Assembly: GCA_027310665.1 (NCBI GenBank)
Contig: DAIDAJ010000024.1
Span: 17,607 to 81,606, forward strand
DNA from: Sideroxydans sp.
GTDB lineage: Bacteria; Pseudomonadota; Gammaproteobacteria; Burkholderiales; Gallionellaceae
Reading direction: 5' to 3'
DNA length: 64,000 bases
A program made the translations under genes and the position numbers. The notes under the pieces were generated by a model. It saw nothing but the letters and a program-made list of their open reading frames with translations, ran no database searches and was not told the origin of the DNA. Of the stretch, positions 11,441-57,199 are shown piece by piece; position 1 is the first letter of the stretch, and each line of letters starts with the position of its first letter.

Positions 11441-11977
11441 ATGAGATACCGGCGTGCATTCGTTGATGGCGGCTCATTCTTCTTCACGTTGGTGACGGAG
11501 AAACGGCGACCGATATTTGCCTCGACGGAGGCGGTGGATGTGTTGCGGTCCGCATTTCGTTCCGTGCGAGCCTCCCATCCGTTTGTGCTGGATGCAATGG
11601 TGGTTTTGCCGGATCACTTGCATTGCATCTGGACGTTGCCGCCAGACGATGCAGATTTCGCCATCCGCTGGAGACTGGTTAAAACGTGGTTCACGAAACA
11701 TTGCGATCCGGCGCTACGTGTCATGCAAAACGCCAGCCAGGCGAGGCGGCGGGAGCAGACGCTGTGGCAGCATCGTTATTGGGAGCACATGCTGCGGGAC
11801 GAACAGGATTTCGAGAAACATGTGGAGTATGTTCATTACAATCCGGTGAAGCACGGATATGCGACCTCTCCGATGGCGTGGCCGCATTCCAGTTTCCGGA
11901 GGTATGTCGAGGCTGGGATATATGAGGCGGATTGGGGACGGTGGCAGATGGATTTTGATGGTGTTGGGTATGAATGA
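11441..11977 (+). mobile_element. REP-associated tyrosine transposase (RAYT / TnpA-REP, HUH Y1)
   Basis: GGSFFFTLVT, HUH motif PDHLH, WQHRYWEH, catalytic region YVHYNPVK; flanked by GTAG REPs. Confidence 0.92.
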
Positions 11978-11984
11978 GGCGGGT

Positions 11985-12014
11985 GTCGGGTTACGCTGCG
12001 CTAACCCGACCTAC
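11985..12014 (-). repeat. GTAG-REP (family A) downstream of RAYT
   Basis: GTCGGGTTACGCTGCGCTAACCCGACCTAC is the reverse complement of the 11328 REP. Confidence 0.9.
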
Positions 12015-12082
12015 GGGGCTACGGGGTGGCCCAATTCTCAATTCTTGAAATGAGAAAATGCGATAGTTGATCGGAGGAAATT

Positions 12083-13279
12083 ATGAGCAAACAAGTCCAG
12101 GAAGCCTACATCGTTGCCGCAACACGCACGCCAGTCGGCAAGGCGCCGCGCGGCATGTTCCGCAACACCCGTCCGGACGACTTGCTGGCGCATGTGCTGA
12201 AGAGCGTGCTGGCACAGGCACCGTCGCTCGACCCGGCCAGCATCGGTGACGTGATCGCCGGCTGCGCGATGCCGGAGGCGGAGCAGGGCATGAACGTGGC
12301 ACGCATCGCGCTGCTGCTGGCAGGATTGCCGGATTCGGTGCCCGGGATGACGGTCAACCGCTTCTGTTCCTCCGGTGTGCAGGCAGTGGCGCTGGCGGCA
12401 GACCGCATCCGACTGGGCGAGGCCGATGTGATGATCGCGGCAGGTGTGGAGAGCATGAGCATGGTGCCCATGATGGGCAACAAGGTCGCGTTCAATCCGG
12501 CCATTTTCGAGAACGAGCATGTCGGCATCGCCTACGGCATGGGGATGACCGCGGAGAAAGTGGCGGAGCGCTGGAAGGTGTCGCGCGACGCACAGGACGC
12601 GTTTGCCTTGCAGAGCCATCTGCGCGCCGTTGCGGCGATCAACAACGGCGAATTCGAGGACGAGATCACGCCTTACCGCATCACCGACAATGTGCCGGAC
12701 CTTAATACCCGCGAGATCAATATCAAGACGCGCGACGTCGCGCAGGACGAGGGCCCGCGCTCGGATACCTCGCTGGAGGCGCTGGGCAAGCTCAAGACGG
12801 TGTTCATGCAGAAAGGCTCAGTCACGGCCGGCAACAGTTCACAGATGTCGGACGGTGCGGGCGCGGTACTGCTGTGCTCCGAGTCCGCACTGAAGCGCTA
12901 CAACCTGACACCTATCGGCAAGTTTCTGGGCTTCAACGTGGCGGGCGTGCCGCCGGAGATCATGGGCATCGGCCCGAAAGAAGCCATTCCGCGCGCATTG
13001 AAGCAGGTTGGCCTGACCCTGAACGACATCGGCTGGATCGAGCTGAACGAAGCGTTTGCCGCGCAATCGCTGGCGGTGATCCATGATCTCGGGCTTGATC
13101 CGGCCAAGGTCAATCCGCTGGGCGGGGCGATCGCTTTGGGCCACCCGCTGGGTGCGACCGGGGCGATCCGCACCGCGACGCTGATGCACGGCCTGCGTCG
13201 CCGCAAACAGAAATACGGCATGGTGACTATGTGCATCGGCACGGGCATGGGCGCGGCCGGCGTGTTCGAATCTTTGTGA
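12083..13279 (+). CDS. fadA: Acetyl-CoA C-acyltransferase (3-ketoacyl-CoA thiolase)
   Basis: NRFCSSG, NEAFA, GHPLGATG and CIGTGMG thiolase motifs. Confidence 0.93.
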   Translation: MSKQVQEAYIVAATRTPVGKAPRGMFRNTRPDDLLAHVLKSVLAQAPSLDPASIGDVIAGCAMPEAEQGMNVARIALLLAGLPDSVPGMTVNRFCSSGVQAVALAADRIRLGEADVMIAAGVESMSMVPMMGNKVAFNPAIFENEHVGIAYGMGMTAEKVAERWKVSRDAQDAFALQSHLRAVAAINNGEFEDEITPYRITDNVPDLNTREINIKTRDVAQDEGPRSDTSLEALGKLKTVFMQKGSVTAGNSSQMSDGAGAVLLCSESALKRYNLTPIGKFLGFNVAGVPPEIMGIGPKEAIPRALKQVGLTLNDIGWIELNEAFAAQSLAVIHDLGLDPAKVNPLGGAIALGHPLGATGAIRTATLMHGLRRRKQKYGMVTMCIGTGMGAAGVFESL

Positions 13280-44946: not shown

Positions 44947-45612
44947 TCAGAGCTCGGCGAAGTGTTTAAGTGCGGCTTTATCGGAAACTTGGATATGTTC
45001 CCGCGCCAGTGTCACCCAACCCTGGTCGGCAAACCCTTTCAGCAGACGACTGACGATTTCGCGTGCGCTGCCGAGTTCGTCGGCGAGGGCCTGATGCGTC
45101 GTATTCAGAGGGGTGGGTTTTGCAATGAGCAATGCGGCGAGGCGCTGGTCCAGTTTCTGAAAGGCGACGGCAGAAACCAGCTGCATCAGGTCAGTCAGGC
45201 GGTCGGAGAAGAGGTGGAACACATAATTGCGGAACCCGTCATGTCTTGCCAGCAATGCATGAAACGAAGAAACGGGCAAAACCACCATTTCCAGCGACTG
45301 CTCGACGATTCCTCGCGCCGGATAGCGGGTGTTTCCAAGCAGGCAGCTGCTGGTGAGGATGCAACTTTCACCGGGCGCGATGCGGTAGAGCTGCAATTCG
45401 CGCCCGTTCGGGGCCGTCTTGATCACGCGAACGCTGCCGGAAAGCAGCATCGGAAAACCCTGGCAAGGCTGATTCTCGTCGAATATCACGGTTCCGGCCG
45501 CCAGAGGCATCACCATTGCCGTGTCCAGCAACGCATCGAGTTCCGCTGCAGGCAGCTCGGCCAGCGTCGGGTAGAGCTGCAACACTCGAGTGCGGATGTC
45601 CGGGGCCAGCAT
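44947..45612 (-). CDS. Crp/Fnr-family transcriptional regulator
   Basis: cNMP-type domain (RELQLYRIAPGESC) and HTH THQALADELGSAREIVSRLL. Confidence 0.9.
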   Translation of the reverse strand: MLAPDIRTRVLQLYPTLAELPAAELDALLDTAMVMPLAAGTVIFDENQPCQGFPMLLSGSVRVIKTAPNGRELQLYRIAPGESCILTSSCLLGNTRYPARGIVEQSLEMVVLPVSSFHALLARHDGFRNYVFHLFSDRLTDLMQLVSAVAFQKLDQRLAALLIAKPTPLNTTHQALADELGSAREIVSRLLKGFADQGWVTLAREHIQVSDKAALKHFAEL

Positions 45613-47115
45613 TTATTCCGGCCGCATGTGCGGGAACAGAATCACGTCCCGGATGTTGGCACTGTCGGTAAGCAACATCACCAGGCGGTCGATGCCGATG
45701 CCTTGACCGGCTGTGGGCGGAAGGCCGTATTCCAACGCGCGCACAAAGTCGTTGTCCTTGAACATCGCTTCTTCATCTCCGGCATCTTTTGCAGCCACCT
45801 GGGCGTCAAAGCGCGCTTCCTGGTCTTCCGCGTCGTTAAGCTCGGAGAAGCCGTTCGCGATCTCGCGCCCGACGATGAACAGCTCGAAGCGTTCGGTGAT
45901 CTCGGGGTGGGCGTCGCTGCTGCGCGCCAGCGGTGAGACTTCGATCGGGTAATCGATGATGAAGGTCGGCTCAAAGAGGTGAGATTCGGCCAGCTCCTCG
46001 AACAGGGAAAGCTGCAAGCCGCCGATGCCGTCCTCGGGTTTGTATTTCGCTTTCAGGTCTTGCAGTTCGTTGACGAGGAACTCGCGGTTGTTCAGTTGCG
46101 CATCGGTGAACTGCGGGTGATATTTCTGGACTGCCTGTACCATGGTCAGGCGGTGGAAGGGCTTGCCCAGGTCCAGCTCCTTGCCCTGATACGTGATGAC
46201 CGTGGTACCCAATACTTTCATGGCGACTTCGCGGAACAGTTTCTCGCTGAAGTCCATCAGGTATTTGTAATCGCGGTAGGCCTCGTAGAACTCGATCATG
46301 GTGAACTCGGGGTTGTGCCGCGTGGAAACTCCCTCGTTGCGGAAATTGCGGTTGATCTCGAACACTTTCTCGAAACCGCCCACGACGAGGCGTTTCAGGT
46401 ACAGCTCGGGCGCGATACGCAGATACATCTTCATATCCAGCGCATTGTGATGTGTTTCGAAAGGCTTGGCCGACGCCCCGCCGGGAATGGGATGCATCAT
46501 CGGCGTTTCAACTTCCAGGTACCCGTGGCGCACGAAGAAATCGCGGATGGCCTGGATGATCCGCGTGCGGGCGACGAAGACTTTGCGCGAATCCTCATTG
46601 GTGATGAGATCGAGGTAGCGCTGGCGGTATTTTTGCTCCTGGTCGGTCAGCCCGTGGAATTTCTCGGGTAAAGGGCGCAGTGCCTTGGTCAGCAGGCGTA
46701 CCTGCGTCACCCGCACGGAAAGTTCGCCGGTCTTGGTCTTGAACAGGACACCGATGGCGCCGAGTATGTCGCCCAGGTCGTAATGCTTGAATTCGCCATG
46801 TGCAGCTTCGCCGGTATTGTCGTTGCTGATGAACAATTGCATGCGGCCGCTCATATCCTGCACGGTCGCGAAGCTGGCCTTGCCCATTACGCGCTTCAAC
46901 ATCATGCGTCCGGCCACCGCGACGTGGATCTGTGCGGCTTCCAGTTCGTCATGCGTCTTCCCGCCGAACTCGGCATGCAGGTCGCCTGCCAGATTCTTGC
47001 GGCCGAAATCATTGGGGAAGGCGACACCTTTCTCGCGGATGGCCTTCAGCTTGGCGCGGCGTTCCGCGATGATCTGGTTGTCGTCCTGGGCTGGGATAGT
47101 GGGTTCGTTGCTCAT
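45613..47115 (-). CDS. lysS: Lysine--tRNA ligase (class II)
   Basis: [36 protein letters not shown]. Confidence 0.97.
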
Positions 47116-47182
47116 GGTGTTCTGAATGTGTTGAGTTAATTTTAGCGACGTGAAATATAGCACAGGGACAGGGGTTTCAGGA

Positions 47183-48361
47183 CTACAGATACCCCTCTTG
47201 CTCTCCCTTTTCGCCATGTTCGAGCATCCATTCCAGCAATTCGGCAAGGGCGGAGGGGAGTGCAGGTTCTTGTTGGAGTGAGGCCAGTTGCAGCCTGTCG
47301 CTCTCGGTCAACGGTTTGCGCACAGGCAAAGATGCAAGATCGGCAGCAGACATTTTCCACGGTTGCCAGTTGAGGCCAAGTTCACGCCAAAGTTCGGCAG
47401 CCTTGAGCGCGATGGCAATACCCGCGGGGTCTGGGTCGCAGGCGATACTGGCGGGAGCCGGGGCCAGGTTGAGCAGGCGGCCGACCGTTTCGCGCCACCA
47501 AGTCGGGGGGAAGCCGGGCAACCAGATCACACCGGTCTCCACCTCGCGGCTTTTGGTGGCACGCTCGAAGCTGGTGCGATTCTCCACCAGTTGCCAGCGG
47601 TTGACCGTGCCGGACGCTGCTGTTGCATCCTGTATGGTGGCAGGGGTGAGCGCAGCAAAATCGGCGCAGCTTGCCAGATCAATCCGTCCATTCGGCAAGG
47701 TCAATGTCAGTTGGGCAGCAATCAGCAATAACGGCGTATGGCGTTCAATGCCGAATTCAGCGAGGTCGACAATAGATTCCAGCCAATTCCATTCGCCCTC
47801 GCTGACTGCTTTGGTGTCGCCGCGCGCAAAAAGCGCGAAGTCGCGGCGCGTGCCGTTCCGTTGCTGTATCTGCCAGTCATGCAATTTGAAAATCAAATCC
47901 TGCCGCGCCAGCGCGCGCTGTACCGGCAATTCGTCGAGAAGGGGCACGGCTGGGGAAAGGGTTGGGTTGTCCAGCGCATGAAGCAAGGCACGGCATTCCT
48001 GCCAGCGTTGCGCGTCGTTATCCTTGTCGCGCAAGCCAAGAGCGGCGCGCAGTTGAGGCAAGTACAGCAGTTCCACCTGTTGCGGCCACCATGCACCGAG
48101 CTTCCATTGTTCAGCGACCGCAGCCCACCCGGAGCGCAACAGCCAATCCAGCAGCGCATCGGCTAGTTGCACGCGGGTAGTGCCCGCATCCTTGCGCAGT
48201 GTTTCCCAGCGGCTGTTGCCGCCGCGCTGCACCCAGCGTGCCAGCAGTTCGCGCCATTCGGCGGGCAGGGAGTCGAGCGATTGTGGCGAGCCGGGCATCG
48301 AGCACCGCCGCTTCTGACAGACGCGGCGCTTGTCCAGCGGCTCGATCAGCAACTCAGGCAT
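47183..48361 (-). CDS. jetD: Wadjet JetD/MksG-like Toprim nuclease
   Basis: [11 protein letters not shown] and CDPDPAG (DxD) Toprim motifs; last gene of the SMC operon. Confidence 0.78.
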
Positions 48362-51122
48362 TGCGTTCGCGCACCAGTACTTTCACTCCCGGAGCCCAGG
48401 TGTCCGCCGGTTTCTTCTTGAAGGTCACTAGCGTCAGCATGGAAGGATCGTACACGCCGACGTTGTGCGTCACCGGCGTGGTCAGCAGGTATTGGGCGCG
48501 GGTGGCCTTGAGGAATTTCGCCACGCGCTCGATGTTGACGATATCGAGGTGGGCGAAAGGTTCGTCGATGAACACGAAGCCGCCGGGGCGCGATTCCTCC
48601 ATCATCAGCGCCACCAGCAGGATCAGCGACTTCATCACCTGCTGGCCGCCGGAGGCGTCGCCGTCGTTCATGCCCATGAAACCCTTGTCGTCGAAGTTGA
48701 AGCGCACCGCAAGGCCGGCCTGCGCCAGCGACAGGTCGTTGCTGTCGAGCAGCACTTGCTCGTGTTCGACTTTAATGCCCGCCAAATCGCCAAGCACTTT
48801 CAGGTTCTTTACATAGCGGCTTACCGTGTAACGCAGTGCAGAGATATATATATCACGCGCCGTGTCGGTCTGGCTGCGCGCCATCTCGTTGTCGCGGCGA
48901 CGTGTGGAAAGGTCGCTTTCCATGCGCTGGTAGTCGTCCTTGATCTTGTCGCGCAGCGCAACCACTAAGTCGTCAGTCTCCCAGGATTCTTCGGCGAAGC
49001 GACGTTCGATCTCATCGATGCGTCGGTCGATGTTGGTGGTGTCGCGCCATTCGTCGGCCAGCTTCTGGTTGGATTCCTTGTTGCACCAGCCCCGGGGCAG
49101 GTGGCGCAGGTTGTGACGTAACACCTGCAGGCGGCGGAACTGCTCCTCGCGTCCGGCGCGGTTTTCCCTTTGCGCGATTTCTTTGTCTATCGTTTGAAGT
49201 TTGATTTCCAGACGCTGAAGTTCCCGGTGCCCATCTGATACGGCCTGGTCGGTCTTTTCCCGCTCCTGTTGCGCCTCGAACATGGGAATGTCCCGGCGGC
49301 GCTGGACCAGTACTTCGTATTGCTGGCGCGTTTCGGCGAATTCCTCGGCGCGCGCCGCGAGTTGCGCGGCGGCATCCACACCGGCCAGCCGCGCCTGCTC
49401 GCCACGTAGCCTACCGGTCAGCGCGGACAGTTGAGCACGTAGCGGCGCGAGTGTTTTTTCGATGCCGGCACGCTGCTCACGCAACGCTTCCAGCCGGGCG
49501 CGGCCGAATCGGGCCTGTTCCGACCCGGCGTAGCGGCCACCGCGTCGTTCGCGCAAATAGCCTTGGCGGGTGATCCAATCCTCAGCGCGCGGCAGCTTGC
49601 TGCCTTCTGCGGCATCTTCCACGCGGCGCGTGCGTTCCAGCGTGCGCAACAGCCATTCGGGCACTGCGCGGGAAAAGCGCACGACTTCGAGCAGCGATCC
49701 CTTCGGGGCGAGGCCGGCCGGCACGCAGTCCGGCACGATGAAGTGGCGATAGCGCAGCTTTTCGCCGAGCGCCATCGCCTGCTCGACATCCTTGTCCTTG
49801 GCCAGCAGCACGACGTGTGCGGAAGGGGCGAGCACGGCTTCCACCGCCGCTTGCCAGGCCGGGTCGGCGATCTCCACCACGTCGGACAACAGGTCGTGCG
49901 CGATACCGGCCTGGGTCAGGGCTTGGCGGAAGGCGGCGACATCCTGGGGGTCGGCGCGGCGTCCGGCGGCGAGGTTCTCCAGCATTTCGTCGAGCTGGCG
50001 TTGCTTCTGCTCCAGTTCGGCGATGCGCAGTCGCAACGTATCGCGGTCATCGGCCATTCTTTCGACCTCGCGCGCATCGGCAAGCTTGCCGTCTGCCAGG
50101 GCCTGCGCTTGGGCTAATAATTGGTCATGTTGCTTGACGATGACTTCGCAAGCCCTGATATCGCCGACGACTTCTGTCAATGCCTGTTGTTGCACCTGCT
50201 CGTTTTCGCGGGCCGCCTGTTTGCGCAACTCTGCCGCCCCATGCGCCTGCTGCTGCACCTGGAATTCCATTTGCAGGTTTTGCCGTTCGATACGCTTACC
50301 GGCCCATTCGCGGTATTGCGACTTTAGAGTGCGGCGCGCATCGTCGGCCTTGGTGCGCAACAGGTAGTGCTCCAGCCGAGGGCGGATTTCTGAGGCCAGC
50401 TCGACGCGTTCCTGATTTAGGTTCTTCCATTCGAGGTACTTATTGACCTTCATTTCGTGGGTTTGAAGGCTGTAACCAAGTTTCTCCAAATCACGTTGCG
50501 CTTCGTCCAGTTCGCGCGACGTGTGTTCCTGATGGTGGCGCGCTTCCTGGTAGCGCTCCAGCACTTCCTTGTCGCCGAACACTTGGAACACCAGGTCGAG
50601 CAGGTCCTTGTGCGACAGTTCACACAGCTTGTCGGTCTGACCCTGTTCCAACGACAGCACGCGGGCGATGGCGGGGGAGAGGCCGGCGCTGTGCAGGATG
50701 CGCTGATAGTCGCGCACGCCGAACTCTTCGCCATTCTGTTCGATTTCCTGCAGGCTCACCTCGCCGTCGGCGATCCAGTATTTGCGCGACCAGTCGCCGC
50801 CTTTCTTGTCGATGCGGCAGGCCAGCGTGATCTTGTCCTGCTGATAGGGCAGGCGGAACGGACGATAGCTCGCACCGGGCGGGCAGCGGTTGTCCACCAC
50901 GCCGCGCAGCCAGCAGAAGTCCTCGCCGTTGCGGCGCACGTAGCGTTTGTAGTCGCGTTTCTTCGAACATTCCAGCGCCAGCAGCGTGCGCATGGCATCG
51001 AGCAGCGTGGTCTTGCCGGAACCGTTGGGGCCGGAGATGGTGATGATGGGCGCATCCAACGGCAGTTTGAAATTGCGCCAGTAGTCCCAGTGGACAGTTT
51101 CCAGTTCCATCAACCTGAACAT
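48354..51122 (-). CDS. jetC: SMC-family ATPase, JetC/MksB-like
   Basis: Walker A GPNGSGKTT, long coiled coils, signature ASGGQQ, Walker B/D-loop FIDEPFAHLD. Confidence 0.85.
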   Translation of the reverse strand: MFRLMELETVHWDYWRNFKLPLDAPIITISGPNGSGKTTLLDAMRTLLALECSKKRDYKRYVRRNGEDFCWLRGVVDNRCPPGASYRPFRLPYQQDKITLACRIDKKGGDWSRKYWIADGEVSLQEIEQNGEEFGVRDYQRILHSAGLSPAIARVLSLEQGQTDKLCELSHKDLLDLVFQVFGDKEVLERYQEARHHQEHTSRELDEAQRDLEKLGYSLQTHEMKVNKYLEWKNLNQERVELASEIRPRLEHYLLRTKADDARRTLKSQYREWAGKRIERQNLQMEFQVQQQAHGAAELRKQAARENEQVQQQALTEVVGDIRACEVIVKQHDQLLAQAQALADGKLADAREVERMADDRDTLRLRIAELEQKQRQLDEMLENLAAGRRADPQDVAAFRQALTQAGIAHDLLSDVVEIADPAWQAAVEAVLAPSAHVVLLAKDKDVEQAMALGEKLRYRHFIVPDCVPAGLAPKGSLLEVVRFSRAVPEWLLRTLERTRRVEDAAEGSKLPRAEDWITRQGYLRERRGGRYAGSEQARFGRARLEALREQRAGIEKTLAPLRAQLSALTGRLRGEQARLAGVDAAAQLAARAEEFAETRQQYEVLVQRRRDIPMFEAQQEREKTDQAVSDGHRELQRLEIKLQTIDKEIAQRENRAGREEQFRRLQVLRHNLRHLPRGWCNKESNQKLADEWRDTTNIDRRIDEIERRFAEESWETDDLVVALRDKIKDDYQRMESDLSTRRRDNEMARSQTDTARDIYISALRYTVSRYVKNLKVLGDLAGIKVEHEQVLLDSNDLSLAQAGLAVRFNFDDKGFMGMNDGDASGGQQVMKSLILLVALMMEESRPGGFVFIDEPFAHLDIVNIERVAKFLKATRAQYLLTTPVTHNVGVYDPSMLTLVTFKKKPADTWAPGVKVLVRERNA

Positions 51123-51802
51123 CAGGATTCCTCCTCGTTATGCAACTCTCCAAGCGTGACATCACGCAGGATGCCGCGCTGTTTCAGCAGGTCGGACAAG
51201 GCGCCGTTGAGGATGCGCGGCGCCATTTCGGCGTAATCGAAGGCGAGGTCGAGCAGGGGGCCTTCGTGGATCATTTTGTTTTTTATTTCAATGAAATTGA
51301 GACTGGATAACTGTGGTAGGTTGATATTGATACGGGTTTTTTTGCCAAGCAAGTTACCGTAATCTTCCAGCAATACACTTACTGGAATTCCGCGCGAGGC
51401 CTCATGCGCCAGCGGCGTGAGTTTCACGGTCTCGAACATTTCGCTTTGTTCTTCCTGCTGTGTGGCTTCGCCCGACAACTGGCGTTCGCGCTTGGGCAAA
51501 ATGATCAGTGCCCACAGGATTACCAGCAGCGCCACGGCGTCCTTGGGCAGGCCGAGGTTGCTGGATTGCCAAGTGTCGTTTTGCTCGAACACGGCGCTTT
51601 CGCATTCGCGCGTGAGGGCGATGCCGACAAAAGCAGAGAAGGGGTGCGCCAGCAAACGCAGGCCGCTGGCGGCCAAGCGTTGTTCCACTTCATCGCGGAA
51701 ACCGGCATCCACCAGCAGGCGGCGCACTTCCTTGTCCTCGCGCGGCAGGTAGCTCAGCGCCAGCAGGCGTGCGATCAGGCGTGCGGCGTGATCCTGGTTC
51801 AT
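51122..51802 (-). CDS. jetB: JetB/MksE-like kite subunit
   Basis: 226 aa, coupled between the JetA-like gene and the SMC; family inferred mainly from position. Confidence 0.65.
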   Translation of the reverse strand: MNQDHAARLIARLLALSYLPREDKEVRRLLVDAGFRDEVEQRLAASGLRLLAHPFSAFVGIALTRECESAVFEQNDTWQSSNLGLPKDAVALLVILWALIILPKRERQLSGEATQQEEQSEMFETVKLTPLAHEASRGIPVSVLLEDYGNLLGKKTRININLPQLSSLNFIEIKNKMIHEGPLLDLAFDYAEMAPRILNGALSDLLKQRGILRDVTLGELHNEEES

Positions 51803-53058
51803 GGGGTTTTCTCCTGTTGCGGTTCGATGTATCCGTCGCTCATCGCGGCGATCTCATCGCGTCCTATGGTTTTCAGTTCCAGACTCTCATTCCAGCGCAA
51901 TTGCAGCGGCAGTGCGGCCAGCGGAGCCAGTTCGGGATCGACGTTCTGTTCGCCGAGGAACGACAGCAGCGACAGGCGGTACGAGGCATCGCTGAAGCTG
52001 CCGCCGACGATGCCGTCGGCCAGATTCATCGGTTCTTTCAGCCCGGCCAGCAGGCGCGTCAGCGCAGCCAGTTGATACGGCGGTTCATGCTCCACATCGT
52101 CCACGTATTCGACTTCGGCGGGGGCGGGCATGGCGGAGATGCGGCGGTTGGGCTGTTCACGCGCGACGAACTCTTCGGTGTTGTCCAGCATCACGTCGGG
52201 CAGGATGAAAGTGCATTCCGGCGTAATCGAAAGATGCTCGGCGGTGAGCGCAACCAGTTCGTCCACGCTGCGCTCCTTGAGCCAGGCCGCGAGTTCGGAA
52301 GAGCTGAGGCCGCCATGCGACAGGTGCACCTGCTGGCGCGAGATTTCGGCCAGCTCGCGCTGGAAAACGGACGACATGCGCATTAGCTTGGATTGGCGCT
52401 GGCCGATTTGTTGAGACAATTTCCAGGTCGCGTCGTCCAGACCTTCGGTGGCGAGGTCGCGCATTACCTGGTTGGCCTTGTCCATCCATTTCTGCACCGA
52501 TTCCAGCTTTGCCTGCGCCTCGCGCAGTCTGAATTCTGAGCCGGAGGTGACAGCCTGCGAGAATTCTTCTTCCAGTTCGGCCAGCCGCGCCAATAGGTGC
52601 GCCAGCGCTTCCGGCGATAGTTTGCCGACGGCGGCCCCGGCGGCGATCTGGGCTGCGAAGAATTCGCCGTCCTGTTCGGTGTTGAACGACAGCAAGCTGG
52701 AGAGCGAGGACAGCACCATGCGCCCAGCGGAGGATATCTGGTAGACGTGGCGCTCGGTGTCCCACAACAGCAATTCGTGTTCGCGCAGGCGGCCGAGCAC
52801 GGTGTTGAGCTTGGATTGGTTGATGAAGGCGAAGTGGCTTTGCAGATCGCGCGGCGTCCATTCAGGCGCGCTGGCGCGCAAGCCGATCTCGCGCAACACC
52901 ATCAGGCGCACCATCACCTCATCGTCGCCGCCGCGGAACAGCGCGATCATCGCGCCGATCAGCGGCTTGGCTTCAAACAGGGGAAAAAACTGCGGCACAT
53001 CGGCAGGCTCGACCCCGTCGACCAGGAACTCGGCGAGTCCGTTGTCTTGCTGCGACAT
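51799..53058 (-). CDS. jetA: JetA/MksF-like kleisin subunit
   Basis: 419 aa, winged-helix-like N-terminus then a helical bundle; first gene of the four-gene operon; inferred from architecture. Confidence 0.65.
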   Translation of the reverse strand: MSQQDNGLAEFLVDGVEPADVPQFFPLFEAKPLIGAMIALFRGGDDEVMVRLMVLREIGLRASAPEWTPRDLQSHFAFINQSKLNTVLGRLREHELLLWDTERHVYQISSAGRMVLSSLSSLLSFNTEQDGEFFAAQIAAGAAVGKLSPEALAHLLARLAELEEEFSQAVTSGSEFRLREAQAKLESVQKWMDKANQVMRDLATEGLDDATWKLSQQIGQRQSKLMRMSSVFQRELAEISRQQVHLSHGGLSSSELAAWLKERSVDELVALTAEHLSITPECTFILPDVMLDNTEEFVAREQPNRRISAMPAPAEVEYVDDVEHEPPYQLAALTRLLAGLKEPMNLADGIVGGSFSDASYRLSLLSFLGEQNVDPELAPLAALPLQLRWNESLELKTIGRDEIAAMSDGYIEPQQEKTP

Positions 53059-53061
53059 GGA

Positions 53062-54166
53062 TTAAACGCCTTGCTTCAGGCTGGCCTCGATGAAGGGATC
53101 GAGATCGCCGTCGAGCACTTTCTGCGTATTGGAGATTTCGACGTTGGTGCGCAGGTCCTTGATGCGCGATTGGTCGAGCACGTAGGAGCGGATCTGATGG
53201 CCCCAGCCGACGTCGGTCTTGGTGGCCTCCAGCTTGTCGGCTTCTGACTGGCGCTTGCGCAGCTCCAGTTCGTACAGGCGCGACTTCAGCATGGACATCG
53301 CTTCCGCCTTGTTGCGGTGCTGCGAGCGATCGTTCTGGCATTGCACGACGATGCCGGTCGGAGCGTGGGTGATGCGAATCGCCGAGTCGGTCTTGTTGAT
53401 GTGCTGGCCGCCCGCACCTGAGGCGCGGAAAGTGTCGATGCGCAGGTCGGCCGGGTTGATGTCCACTTCGATGGAATCATCCACTTCGGGCGAGACGAAC
53501 AGGCTGGCAAAGGAGGTGTGGCGGCCGCCCGAGGAATCGAACGGCGATTTGCGCACCAGGCGGTGCACACCGGTCTCGGTGCGCAGGTGACCGTACGCGT
53601 ATTCCCCCTCGACTTTTAGCGAGGCGCTGCGGATGCCGGCGACATCACCGTCGGTCTGTTCCAGCACCTCGACCTTGAAGCCCTTGCGCTCGCAGTACCT
53701 GAGGTATTGACGCAACAGCATCGAGGCCCAGTCGCAGGCTTCGGTGCCGCCGGCACCGGCCTGGATGTCGATGAAGCAGTTGTTCGGGTCTGCCGGGTTG
53801 GAGAACATGCGGCGGAATTCGAGCGCAGCGACGCGCTTCTCGATATCCTGCACGTCGGCGGCGATGCTCTGCAGGCTGTCATCGTCGTTCTCGGCCTGCG
53901 CCATCTCGAACAATTCGGCGGCATCGTCGAGGTTCTGGCCGATCCGGGTCAGGCCGAGTACCACGTCTTCCAGCAACTTGCGCTCGCGGCCCAATTCCTG
54001 AGCGCGCTTCGCATCGTTCCAGATGGTCGGGTTTTCGGCGAGTTGGTTGACTTCGGTTAAGCGCTCCTGCTTGCTGTCGAAGTCAAAGATACCTCCGTAA
54101 CTCATTGCTGCGACTGCGTAAATCTTGGAGGGAGTGGGAGAGGGCGTTGAGTTGTTCGGCTTCCAT
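53062..54166 (-). CDS. prfB: Peptide chain release factor 2 (programmed +1 frameshift)
   Basis: 27-codon leader MEAEQL..RRYL from 54166, then GGAGGT-AT-CTT-TGA-C slippery site (54082-54096); second frame carries SPF and GGQ. Confidence 0.96.
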
Positions 54167-54239
54167 TTTGTATGTTTTATCGCTGCTTTGAAAGGCCGCG
54201 ATTATACACGTCCTGAGCGTATCAAAGGAGCCGAAGGGC

Positions 54240-55511
54240 TTAGCGGAACAGCAGGCCGAACAGAACGCCGCAGGCAATGGCGCCGAAGCCGATGGCGACT
54301 GGTTTTGCCAATGTCCGGCCACCGATAAAGACGACCATGCCGAACTTGAAGGCGACATTGGACAGGAAGGCGATGGCGATCGCGGTGACCGTCTGTTGCT
54401 CGCTCAGTTGGCCGAGGTTGAACAGGCGCAGGCTGGATAGCGTGATGGCGTCGACATCGGTCAGGCCGGACGCCAGTGCCACGGCATACAAACCCTGGCT
54501 GCCGGCCAGGTCGGCCATCCACGCCGAACCCAGCAACACGATCACATACAGCAAACCGAAGCCGACAGCAGAATGCAATTCCGCCGGGTTCGAGGTTTCC
54601 GGAATATAAAGCTCGGATACTTTACTGGATTTGCGCCAAGTGTAGATCGAGACGACAACCCCGGCGATCAATCCACCCGCGAATACAGGCGCCAGGCCCG
54701 GCAGGGTGCCATATGCCACGACCGAGCTGACTACCAGCAGACGCAGCAATACCACTACGCTGGCGATCACGATCACCGCGGCGGCAAGACTGGTCATCGC
54801 CGGGTTGGACTTGCCGTGCTTGGCATAGATCATGGTGGTGGCAGTGCTCGACACCAAGCCGCCGAGAAAACCAAGCAAGGGTGCCCCGTAACGCGTTCCT
54901 ACCATGTGCAACGCGGCATAACCGGCGAGGCTGATACCGGAGATGAGCACCACCATCAACCAGGCCTGGTGCGGATTGAATGCATTATAGGGGCCGTAGT
55001 CCTGGTTCGGGAGGATGGGCAGGACGATGAAAGTGAGCACCGAGAATTGCAGCACGGCAACCAGGTCGCGGCGTGTCAGCCGTTGCGTGAAGCCGCGCAA
55101 TTCAGGCTTGAAGTAGAGCAGGGTGGTGATGCCGATCGCCAGCATCACGGCGAGCGTGGAAAGTCCGAACCAGATCAACACACCCAGGCCGTAACTCAGC
55201 AGCAGGGCGACCACAGTGGTGGTGCCGGGGTCGTTCTCTTCGGTGGGCGTGTTGATGTAGGCGGCGACGATCATGCCTGCCACGGCAAGCAGGCCCGCGA
55301 CCACCAGCCAGGGAGAGCCTAGTCTGGCAGAAAGCATCGCCATCAAGGTGCCGAGCACTGCGACCAGCGCAAAGGTGCGCAGACCGGCTTTGGCGGAAGG
55401 GTTGCGCTCGCGCTCGAGGCCGATCAACAGGCCGATGGCGAGACTGGTCAGGAATTGCGGCAGCGCTTCGATGCCATTGGCCTGCAATAGGGTGGATTCC
55501 ATAAAGCTCAA
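54240..55511 (-). CDS. MgtC/SapB-family membrane protein with DUF4010
   Basis: GLLIGLERE..AGLRTF, GGLVSSTATT, SGLTDVDA. Confidence 0.88.
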   Translation of the reverse strand: MSFMESTLLQANGIEALPQFLTSLAIGLLIGLERERNPSAKAGLRTFALVAVLGTLMAMLSARLGSPWLVVAGLLAVAGMIVAAYINTPTEENDPGTTTVVALLLSYGLGVLIWFGLSTLAVMLAIGITTLLYFKPELRGFTQRLTRRDLVAVLQFSVLTFIVLPILPNQDYGPYNAFNPHQAWLMVVLISGISLAGYAALHMVGTRYGAPLLGFLGGLVSSTATTMIYAKHGKSNPAMTSLAAAVIVIASVVVLLRLLVVSSVVAYGTLPGLAPVFAGGLIAGVVVSIYTWRKSSKVSELYIPETSNPAELHSAVGFGLLYVIVLLGSAWMADLAGSQGLYAVALASGLTDVDAITLSSLRLFNLGQLSEQQTVTAIAIAFLSNVAFKFGMVVFIGGRTLAKPVAIGFGAIACGVLFGLLFR

Positions 55512-57199
55512 TCTCCTATCCAGTGGCGCACGATGAGCTGCAAAGTCTCGCTGCCATTGTATTCATTGACACTCAGACTGTACACCGCATGGATGTCGTC
55601 CGGCGCGGGCTCGGCGGAAAAGAAGCGGATGGCGTCGAAACTTCCGGCTGGAGACGACAGCTTGAGCTTGAGGTGTTTCTCGCCGACCACACGCTGGGTC
55701 TGCACCCGGAAATCGCCTTCGAACAGCGGTTCCGGAAAACCCTGTCCCCACACCTGACGTTGAAGTTCGCGTGCGATGCTCAAAGTGGATTCGCTTGCGT
55801 CGAGCGTACCATCGGTTGGAATGGTTTTGACCAATGCTTCGGCGTCGAGCAATTCCTGCGCAACCGATTCAAAAGCCGATCGGAAGTCGTTCAGGTCCGC
55901 TTCGAGGATGCTCAAACCTGCGGCCATGGCATGCCCGCCGAATTTCAGTATCAGTTGCGGATGGCGCTTCGACACCAGATCAAGCGCGTCGCGCAGATGC
56001 AGTCCGGCGATGCTGCGCCCGGAACCTTTAAGTTCTCCCGTTTGCGAGCGCGCAAAGGCGATCACCGGGCGGTGGAACTTGTCCTTGAGGCGTGAGGCGA
56101 GGATGCCGATCACCCCCTGATGCCAATCCTCGTTGAACAGCGCAAGCGAGAAGCCGTCCTCCGGATCGAAGGCATGGAGCGTGGCCAGCGCGCTGTCCTG
56201 CATATCGGCCTCGATGGTGCGGCGCTCATGGTTCAGCGCATCCAGCCTGGCAGCGATTTCGCCGGCTTCCGTGTCGTCGTCGGTCAACAGGCAACGGATG
56301 CCGAGGCTCATGTCGTCCAGCCGTCCAGCCGCATTCAGGCGCGGGCCGACGATGAAACCCAGTTCGTAGGCCGACGCCTGCGCAGCCAGTCTGCGTGCCA
56401 CACGCAATAGTGCCCGGATACCGGCGCAGCTGCGTCCGGCACGGATGCGCTGCAAACCCTGCTGGACGAGGATGCGGTTGTTATCGTCCAGCCTGACCAC
56501 ATCCGCGACCGTGCCGAGGGCGACCAGGTCGAGCAGGTTGCCGAGATTGGGTTCGGCCTTTCCGGCAAACGCGCCGCGTTTGCGCATCTCCGCCCGCAAT
56601 GCCATCAGTACGTAGAACATCACGCCGACCCCCGCCAGATTCTTGCTGGGAAAAGTGCAGCCGGGCTGGTTGGGGTTCACGATGCACAGGGCATCCGGCA
56701 GCGTGTCTCCGGGCAAATGATGGTCGGTCACCAGTACTTGCATGCCCAGGCGTGCGGCTTCTGCCACGCCTTCTACGCTGGCGATGCCGTTGTCCACGGT
56801 GAGCAAAATATCCGGTTCGGAACGTTTGGCCAGACGCACGATCTCCGGCGTCAACCCATAACCATACTCAAATCGGTTGGGGACGATGAAATCGACTCTT
56901 GCGCCGAGCGCGCTGAGTCCCCGCATACCCACCGTGCAGGCTGTCGCACCATCGGCATCGTAGTCGGCCACGATCAGTATCTTCTTATTGTCCGTGATGG
57001 CATCGGCCAGCAGGCCTGCCATCATTTCCGCGTTCTTCAACAGCGTGAAAGGCAGCAGGTGCCTGATATCGGTATCGAGTTGAGCCGGATCGCGGATGCC
57101 GCGTGCCGCATAGATGCGGGCCAGCAAGGGGACAATGCCGGATTGGGCCAGAAGCCGGGAGGTGTCGGCGGGAAAGGGGCGCTGGATGATCTTGCTCAT
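55508..57199 (-). CDS. recJ: ssDNA 5'-3' exonuclease RecJ
   Basis: DYDADG, TVDNG, TDHH, RLNAAGRL, GSGRS, GGHAMAAG. Confidence 0.96.
   Translation of the reverse strand: MSKIIQRPFPADTSRLLAQSGIVPLLARIYAARGIRDPAQLDTDIRHLLPFTLLKNAEMMAGLLADAITDNKKILIVADYDADGATACTVGMRGLSALGARVDFIVPNRFEYGYGLTPEIVRLAKRSEPDILLTVDNGIASVEGVAEAARLGMQVLVTDHHLPGDTLPDALCIVNPNQPGCTFPSKNLAGVGVMFYVLMALRAEMRKRGAFAGKAEPNLGNLLDLVALGTVADVVRLDDNNRILVQQGLQRIRAGRSCAGIRALLRVARRLAAQASAYELGFIVGPRLNAAGRLDDMSLGIRCLLTDDDTEAGEIAARLDALNHERRTIEADMQDSALATLHAFDPEDGFSLALFNEDWHQGVIGILASRLKDKFHRPVIAFARSQTGELKGSGRSIAGLHLRDALDLVSKRHPQLILKFGGHAMAAGLSILEADLNDFRSAFESVAQELLDAEALVKTIPTDGTLDASESTLSIARELQRQVWGQGFPEPLFEGDFRVQTQRVVGEKHLKLKLSSPAGSFDAIRFFSAEPAPDDIHAVYSLSVNEYNGSETLQLIVRHWIGD

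Follow-up and report, generated by a model that had tools for sequence, protein, structure and literature searches.

Organization of the prfB-lysS cassette

We analysed a stretch of 64,000 nucleotides (nt) from Sideroxydans sp. (Gallionellaceae; assembly GCA_027310665.1, contig DAIDAJ010000024.1, positions 17,607 to 81,606), referred to below as the window, in which four genes on the minus strand, here designated A to D, lie between prfB and lysS (Table 1). A first-pass annotation, made from the letters of the window, had described this cassette as a compact, domesticated Wadjet/MksBEFG-type system, in which a complex of the structural maintenance of chromosomes (SMC) family is joined by a Toprim nuclease, and the layout that it had given was confirmed. 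Gene A begins with an ATG at 53058, separated from the prfB stop codon (TAA, 53064-53062) by the three nucleotides TCC; the successive genes overlap by 4 nt (A/B, ATGA), 1 nt (B/C, TGATG) and 8 nt (C/D); and D ends with a TAG at 47185-47183, leaving 67 nt, close to the 70 or so first estimated, before the ATG of lysS at 47115. A longer frame for lysS, encoding 544 amino acids (aa) from a TTG (45613-47247) and overlapping the end of D, was discarded as an artefact of calling open reading frames (ORFs), the real start being that ATG, and D and lysS do not overlap.

The composition of the cassette is host-like, as had been proposed from GC content and codon usage: its GC content is 0.613, compared with 0.616 for prfB and 0.582 for lysS, and the GC content at third codon positions is 0.69-0.78, compared with 0.73-0.83 in the flanking genes. 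Likewise, a Pfam scan together with the ORF list revealed no mobility genes within ~5 kb of the cassette, in line with the earlier description, and no integrase, repeats or tRNA were found in the window. Recent foreign acquisition in the window genome was considered as an explanation, and the host-like composition gives it no support.

Table 1. Positions of the cassette, its flanking genes and insertions seen in related loci. Positions without a locus label refer to the window.
Feature	Position	Strand	Remarks
recJ	55508-57199	minus	neighbour on the prfB side
MgtC/DUF4010 membrane protein gene	54240-55511	minus	between recJ and prfB
prfB (release factor 2)	53062..54166	minus	Pfam PCRF 6e-56, RF-1 8e-44; ATG at 54166
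Gene A, 419 aa	51799-53058	minus	putative MukF/JetA-type kleisin
Gene B, 226 aa	51122-51802	minus	predicted KITE (tandem winged helix), JetB/MukE/ScpB type
Gene C, 922 aa	48354-51122	minus	SMC-family ATPase
Gene D, 392 aa	47183-48361	minus	predicted JetD/MksG-like Toprim nuclease
D-lysS spacer, 67 nt	47116..47182	minus	holds extended -10-like box
lysS (lysyl-tRNA synthetase)	45613..47115	minus	Pfam tRNA-synt_2 2.5e-93, tRNA_anti-codon 7.6e-15; ATG at 47115
Crp-type regulator gene	44947-45612	minus	beyond lysS
VapBC-type insertions	L016/L036 ~11713-12514 (Ferrigenium sp. UT4); L054 8230-8971; L072 8353-8965; L084; L045 8312-8997		identified by eye

Gene C encodes an SMC-family ATPase and gene D a JetD-like protein

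The product of C carries a Walker A motif (GPNGSGKT, residues 31-38), a signature motif (ASGGQQ, 823-828) and a Walker B motif (FVFIDE, 849-854), with a central hinge at about residues 409-508 and long coiled-coil arms. It passes the Pfam model SMC_N (3.7e-17; 62.9 bits against a cut-off of 40), AAA_29 is also matched, and SMC_N recognises 35/35 orthologues of C, of which 17 match SMC_hinge as well (best 2.8e-6), bearing out the initial description of an SMC ATPase of 922 aa with an ASGGQQ signature. In PADLOC, JetC1 matches C with up to 2.2e-21, mostly over the coiled coil, and a MukB N-terminal model gives marginal matches to 15 of the 35 orthologues (best E value 0.002). The closest sequences in the PDB are Smc heads; C reaches 94.2 bits against TIGR02168 (SMC_prok_B), for which the cut-off is 567, and is not a canonical Smc. 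At 922 aa it is also short compared with the JetC profiles, which have 1097-1215 positions, and the term compact variant was well chosen. A search of the window genome for smc-scpAB, a check suggested with the first-pass annotation, found a separate canonical Smc of 1178 aa (1061 bits) on another contig and ScpA elsewhere in the genome, and the idea that C is the main SMC protein of the cell was rejected on this basis.

The last gene had been read as a Toprim protein with an E..DxD arrangement, which further comparison upheld. The PADLOC model JetD1 matches D at 1.6e-16 in a co-linear manner (residues 200-390 against profile positions 214-404 of 409), and Pfam DUF2399 matches at 1e-3, just under its cut-off, which two orthologues of D pass. 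The motifs LVEN (E260) and CDPDPAG (D309 and D311) are present, and E260, N261, C308, D309, D311, P312, G314, K385, E387, Q388 and E389 are invariant in 28 orthologues, the last four forming a K-x-EQE motif near the C-terminus. In E. coli JetD, the E248A mutant is dead for cleavage (10.1101/2023.11.03.565488), and by analogy E260 of D would correspond in role to this residue. The OLD and AriB models of PADLOC do not match D, in contrast to the JetD model, and a sequence search of the PDB with D returned nothing useful.

Fold comparisons of A and B

Neither A nor B belongs to a family in Pfam, PADLOC or NCBIfam, and DUF3375 and DUF4194 do not match the window proteins. Since sequence models and profile searches gave no identity, we predicted the structures of both proteins with AlphaFold2, using alignments of 43 (A) and 44 (B) orthologues, and compared the models with the PDB using Foldseek. 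The model of B (predicted local distance difference test, pLDDT, 76.7; predicted template modelling score 0.73) has JetB chains as its top three matches, namely 8as8_C from E. coli (5.5e-5) and 8dk1_E/F from P. aeruginosa (6e-4 and 1.3e-3), with a probability of 1.0 and target-normalised template modelling (TM) scores of 0.56-0.62; ScpB, MAGE-G1/NSE-1 and MukE come next. Orthologues of B additionally give sub-threshold matches to JetB1 (0.0098) and DUF4194 (0.0064). At the level of its predicted fold, B is a KITE protein (for tandem winged-helix elements interacting with kleisin) of the JetB/MukE type.

The model of A (pLDDT 73) has winged helices at its N- and C-terminal ends, with a long helical bundle followed by a disordered linker between them, a domain order that fits a MukF-like kleisin. 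The top Foldseek matches of A, all weak, are 9qe1_E from a Neobacillus Wadjet-II JetABC complex (6e-3) and 8q72_E from E. coli JetABCD (9e-3), both of which we take to be JetA, followed by residues 1-287 of MukF (1t98_A, 4e-2), and A is accordingly described here as a putative kleisin of the MukF/JetA type. Many fold matches of both A and B are regulators of the MarR, PadR or GntR type. In sequence searches of the PDB with A and B, as single sequences and as profiles, the A profile found a PadR-like winged helix (around residues 47-114, E = 0.088) and there was otherwise nothing relevant. The two small genes had been called kleisin-like and kite-like at the outset; the second half of that description stands, with B folding as JetB, and for the first there are the weak fold matches of A, with no support from hidden Markov models (HMMs) or hhalign.

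A profile search with A against 1.84 billion cluster representatives (50% identity) yielded 328 matches, with no bridge to the JetA, MksF or MukF families, and ten more distant full-length matches had no kleisin-related Pfam domain. A and B are annotated as hypothetical proteins, and tools that rely on Pfam, NCBIfam or PADLOC models would probably miss the system. The family thus represents a blind spot of annotation, in which the putative kleisin and the predicted KITE subunit both lack a model in these three collections.

Linkage to prfB in four families

A search of genome contigs with an alignment of A yielded over 550 relatives, and 80 of these loci were taken for comparison. The clade that contains the window (clade 1) is made up of loci from Gallionellaceae, Thiobacillus, Rhodocyclaceae and Methylophilaceae whose A proteins are 48-92% identical, and in 40 of its 60 loci prfB lies no more than 150 nt upstream of A, with 14 more at no more than 2.5 kb. 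A tree of concatenated A, B and C sequences groups by host family. Linkage to prfB in four families, together with a tree that follows the hosts, indicates that the association is old and that exchange has taken place mainly within families, and the cassette is in this respect unlike a freely hopping island.

A consensus scan of the minus strand found no promoter-like or terminator-like sites inside the cassette or at its borders. Given the gap of 3 nt between prfB and A and the lack of a terminator-like site on the coding strand, the prfB promoter most likely drives transcription of the cassette. The spacer between D and lysS holds an extended -10-like box (TGcTATATT, 47154-47162, minus strand), which the consensus scan missed because its -35 element is weak. 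Within this spacer, the block CCCTGTGCTATATTTCACG, of which the box is part, does not vary among the six occupied Gallionellaceae sites that were compared (including L011-L015), with or without D, and is lacking from empty sites. We read the box as a candidate promoter of lysS that is carried along with the cassette; it probably supplies lysS with a promoter of its own and would compensate for the 5.9-kb insertion upstream of lysS.

Presence and absence within Gallionellaceae

Among 118 high-quality Gallionellaceae genomes, gene A is present in 20, from 7 of 14 genera, and absent from 83%. Carriers within the genus of the window organism have the cassette at exactly the same prfB-lysS site, and in relatives whose prfB is 92-94% identical, prfB runs straight into lysS across a ribosome-binding spacer of 16-20 nt. 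In a tree of prfB, empty sites are interleaved with two cassette lineages, designated i and ii, and both types are mixed among near-identical prfB lineages.

Two genomes illustrate how this pattern may have arisen. In genome G102 (L116, 8763-9358), all that is left of the cassette behind prfB is the first ~150 codons of A and then the last ~80 codons of D, a deletion remnant that documents loss in situ. Genome G184 has two copies, an ABC-only cassette at prfB-lysS (L115) and an ectopic ABCD cassette of lineage ii (L114, G184:C1:386000-404000), the latter in a stretch of lower GC content flanked by insertion sequence (IS) elements, IS21 (IstA/IstB) and an IS5-like DDE_Tnp_1/DUF772 transposase. 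A 73-codon fragment of the 3' end of prfB precedes the ectopic copy, which suggests that the prfB site is the home locus.

Whether prfB-lysS synteny is fixed or patchy had been set as a check on the first-pass annotation, with a patchy distribution named as counting against it, and within Gallionellaceae it is patchy. Fixed vertical domestication in the lineage of the window was rejected in view of this distribution and the trees. The description of the cassette as domesticated therefore has to be divided: the 20/118 count, the empty sites in near relatives, the remnant and the ectopic copy speak against it, and the linkage to prfB across four families speaks for it. Judging by these comparisons, the cassette behaves in Gallionellaceae as an accessory, defence-like module, and the prfB-lysS junction appears to behave as a hotspot for accessory genes.

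Other genes were also noticed at this junction. In several relatives, pairs recognised by eye as VapB (AbrB or Phd type) and VapC (PIN) separate D from lysS or prfB from A (Table 1). In a metagenome-assembled genome of Azonexus (L067, 7191-8983), an AAA-type ATPase of 399 aa is followed by an ORF of 198 aa, DUF4276-like by eye, between prfB and A; the two may be another defence pair.

Loss of D and selection on A, B and C

Of the clade 1 loci, 40 have a full-length D, 5 have a partial copy or a remnant and 6 have cleanly lost it, and in 7 more the contig ends too early to tell. Sideroxydans lithotrophicus ES-1 is among the genomes from which it is cleanly absent, and on the ABC tree the losses are distributed over separate branches. 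Pairwise ratios of non-synonymous to synonymous substitution rates (dN/dS) for A, B and C are 0.02-0.16 between genomes without D and 0.05-0.20 between genomes with D, that is, in the same range; for D itself they are 0.14-0.25. D has been lost repeatedly, ABC is kept under purifying selection after its loss, and we infer that the ABC core would also work without D.

A sister clade in Chitinibacteraceae

A sister clade, with A ~41% identical, occurs in a second conserved context, in which ABC lies behind rplU-rpmA-obg and ahead of either a THUMP/RlmL-like methyltransferase gene or proB. Of the 23 loci examined, which come from Chitinibacteraceae and genomes related to them, 20 show this arrangement, and Silvimonas terrae alone has D. 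In the three distant loci compared first, the fourth gene proved to be an unrelated neighbour: the THUMP methyltransferase, proB and a coiled-coil protein. Gene A is present in 52 of 54 Chitinibacteraceae genomes, covering 12 of 13 genera. A kleisin-KITE-SMC set that is stably inherited without a nuclease, as predicted for these proteins, is thus found in this family (52/54, with purifying selection); the copy in the window has D and is accessory.

Canonical Smc was detected in 23 of 31 sampled Chitinibacteraceae genomes. We examined seven genomes lacking it, four of them single-contig assemblies: three come from one genus (that of genome G029), which is Chitinibacter judging by the near-identity of its rplU-rpmA to that of C. 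tainanensis, and four from two other genera. In these seven genomes ScpA was not found, MukB searches gave at most marginal P-loop matches in short ORFs, and the only match to the JetC model was C itself. The absence of Smc, ScpA and MukB leaves ABC as the only SMC-kleisin-KITE complex in these genomes, from which a capability to act as a condensin may be deduced. On the evidence of gene content, ABC seems to have replaced the normal chromosome-folding complex in the Smc-less genera, and in the sister clade as a whole it is probably a fixed core module serving as a condensin.

Two of the Smc-less Chitinibacter genomes additionally contain, away from ABC, sub-threshold ORFs of ~220 aa resembling DUF4194 (the MksE/JetB family), at G049:C1:2344213-2344725 and G047:C1:3221233-3221409; no JetC-like gene was detected elsewhere in either genome.

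Interpretation of the cassette

We interpret ABCD as a strongly diverged Mks/Wadjet-type SMC complex in which A would be the kleisin, B the KITE subunit, C an SMC ATPase with short arms and D a Toprim nuclease resembling JetD, and we put the probability of this reading at roughly two in three. On the model of JetABCD, ABC would be loaded onto DNA and would use ATP for loop extrusion; its motors would stall on small circular DNA, which D would then cut, resulting in plasmid restriction. The nuclease would be evolutionarily optional and the ABC core condensin-capable. In Gallionellaceae, the cassette is accessory and forms a presence/absence polymorphism at a single fixed chromosomal site; deletion removes it, recombination within the family replaces it, and on occasion it is mobilised.

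Several results count against this interpretation. No JetA or JetB match for A or B was obtained in PADLOC-DB 2.0 at E <= 0.01, and the fold matches of A are weak (E 6e-3 to 4e-2, TM below 0.2), which we attribute to its model being extended and only moderately confident. Comparison by hhalign of A with type I JetA (DUF3375; P = 0.44) and of B with JetB-like proteins (P = 0.17) was significant in neither case, with cross-controls giving similar values; the references were DUF3375 genes and the JetB-like ORFs downstream of them from 20 genomes of the same class, the JetB set being chosen by position alone. Most of the JetC signal in C comes from the coiled coil, and it does not exceed the matches to LmuB or mad3 (~1e-21). 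The N-terminal half of D (~200 aa) matches no model used, and an arm/CAP region is not recognisable in it by sequence. Finally, a defence role is suggested by two things, the analogy with Wadjet and the patchy distribution.

The strongest competing explanation, which we nonetheless think unlikely, is that the cassette is a housekeeping, MksBEF-like condensin in the window genome too, with D as an accessory Toprim protein acting on the chromosome (for example, when it is entangled or dimeric) and the link to prfB providing growth-coupled expression. The fixation of the ABC core in 52/54 Chitinibacteraceae genomes behind rplU-rpmA-obg would fit this, as would the seven genomes from three genera in which C is the sole SMC-like gene, with Smc, ScpA and MukB missing; the purifying selection on ABC after loss of D and the fact that both conserved contexts are translation-factor operons point the same way. 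Set against this, the window genome has its own canonical Smc (1061 bits) and ScpA, and absence from 83% of Gallionellaceae, including very close relatives, is a poor fit to an essential function. Moreover, D is the part with the clearest affinity to Wadjet, and toxin-antitoxin genes and defence-like genes collect at this junction. A possible condensin role, which had been raised in the first-pass annotation, gains indirect support from ABC being selected without D and fixed in Chitinibacteraceae, Smc-less genera included, and meets an objection in the Smc and ScpA of the window genome.

It is more improbable still that the cassette is an ordinary, horizontally moving defence island with its own internal promoter, positioned at prfB-lysS by chance and without a functional tie to it. 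Such an island would account for the patchy distribution, for the mixing of types i and ii among near-identical prfB lineages and for the ectopic copy between IS elements, and the 14 loci in which toxin-antitoxin or other genes separate prfB from A imply that direct coupling is dispensable. The insertion point is, however, the same in four families and the cassette tree follows the host families; a promoter would not fit into the 3-nt gap and would have to lie inside prfB; the composition is host-like and the window is free of integrase, repeats and tRNA; and even the ectopic copy keeps a 3' fragment of prfB.

We give very little credence to A and B being winged-helix regulators or adaptors of an ABC-ATPase and Toprim defence system such as Lamassu, PARIS or OLD, lacking an SMC ring, as, despite the many MarR, PadR or GntR-type fold matches of A and B, the matches of C to LmuB and mad3 at ~1e-21 and the lack of a JetA or JetB signal in hhalign, the best full-length matches are SMC partners (JetA, MukF, JetB, ScpB, Nse3 and MukE), C combines long coiled coils with an SMC hinge, the genes agree with mukF-mukE-mukB in order and size, and D matches JetD and not the OLD or AriB models.

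Relation to known SMC systems

The closest known system to the predicted ABCD complex is Wadjet type I (JetABCD/MksBEFG/EptABCD), on account of the gene order, the affinity to JetD1 and JetC1 and the SMC-type hinge. In both, a kleisin gene, putative in the cassette, is followed by those for the KITE, the SMC protein and the Toprim nuclease; JetD1 recognises D, which keeps the glutamate and the DxD motif, B has the fold of JetB, and the distribution among species is patchy. The hinge of type I JetC has been predicted to be SMC-type and 'donut-like' (10.1101/2025.03.10.642339), and the hinge of C is likewise of the canonical SMC type. The cassette differs from type I in that A and B are unseen by the JetA and JetB HMMs, DUF3375 and DUF4194, the N-terminal half of D is unrecognised and C is ~15-20% shorter than JetC; it is anchored in a housekeeping operon across families instead of being scattered in defence islands, and D is often lost with ABC retained. 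Assignment to Wadjet type I, II or III by HMM, another check suggested initially, therefore succeeds in part: the best partial affinity is to type I (JetC1 and JetD1), and the subtype is not assignable because no JetA or JetB model matches A or B.

Cassettes without D, as in S. lithotrophicus ES-1 and Chitinibacteraceae, resemble MksBEF of Pseudomonas aeruginosa and the MksB system of Mycobacterium in consisting of a predicted kleisin, KITE and SMC and in coexisting with Smc-ScpAB in many genomes. MksBEF complexes have been described as back-up or alternative condensins (10.1101/2025.03.10.642339; PMC11329512). Unlike these, A and B have no detectable sequence relation to MksF and MksE and form a separate small family (328 clusters at 50% identity), and the contexts of ABC are fixed, after prfB or obg. 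The likeness to MukBEF lies in the order mukF-mukE-mukB, in the sizes of A (419 aa compared with ~440) and B (226 aa compared with ~230) and in the presence of MukF and MukE among the fold matches, whereas C is far shorter than MukB (~1480 aa) and its hinge signal is SMC-type, not MukB-type. MukBEF replaces Smc-ScpAB in gammaproteobacteria, a parallel to the Smc-less genera of Chitinibacteraceae. By sequence, the window proteins fall outside the MukB, MksB, MukF, MksF, MukE and MksE families, the MukB N-terminal match being marginal and DUF3375 and DUF4194 silent. With Smc-ScpAB, the system shares a C head nearest to Smc heads in the PDB, matches to SMC_N and SMC_hinge and a B fold resembling ScpB; it differs in the score of C (94 bits against a cut-off of 567) and in A, which is MukF/JetA-like and much larger than ScpA.

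The evolutionary relationship between nuclease-armed Wadjet and the complexes that fold chromosomes, MukBEF and MksBEF, is unsettled in the SMC field, and their origins have been called 'possibly linked' (10.1101/2025.03.10.642339). The family described here offers a natural series that bears on it, from ABCD through ABC with D freshly deleted and loci with remnants of D to ABC as a fixed core and, lastly, ABC as apparently the sole SMC complex. Its sites are known and cultured hosts are available (Sideroxydans lithotrophicus ES-1, Sideroxyarcus emersonii, Ferrigenium, Methylophilus and Chitinibacter), and its compact proteins, with C at 922 aa, could suit structural work on loop extrusion coupled to cleavage.

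A bolder possibility, which we advance tentatively and would sooner doubt than affirm, is that ABC(D) constitutes a hitherto unrecognised fourth lineage of bacterial KITE-type SMC complexes, beside Smc-ScpAB, MukBEF and Mks/Wadjet I-III, with two lifestyles. With D, it would restrict plasmids from the prfB-lysS site in Gallionellaceae, Thiobacillus, Rhodocyclaceae and Methylophilaceae; without D, it would be a fixed condensin behind rplU-rpmA-obg, replacing Smc-ScpAB in at least three genera of Chitinibacteraceae. If such a fourth lineage exists, its repeated placement in translation-factor operons would be functional and not accidental, tying the dosage of the complex to growth rate.

Features of the prfB start region

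The prfB gene next to the cassette retains the classical programmed +1 frameshift site of this gene. A short frame-0 ORF from the prfB ATG ends at CTT-TGA-C, within the sequence CTTTGAC (54082-54088), and a Shine-Dalgarno-like GGAGG lies ahead of it. A TATAAT box is present at ~54200-54205, about 35 nt upstream of the prfB ATG.

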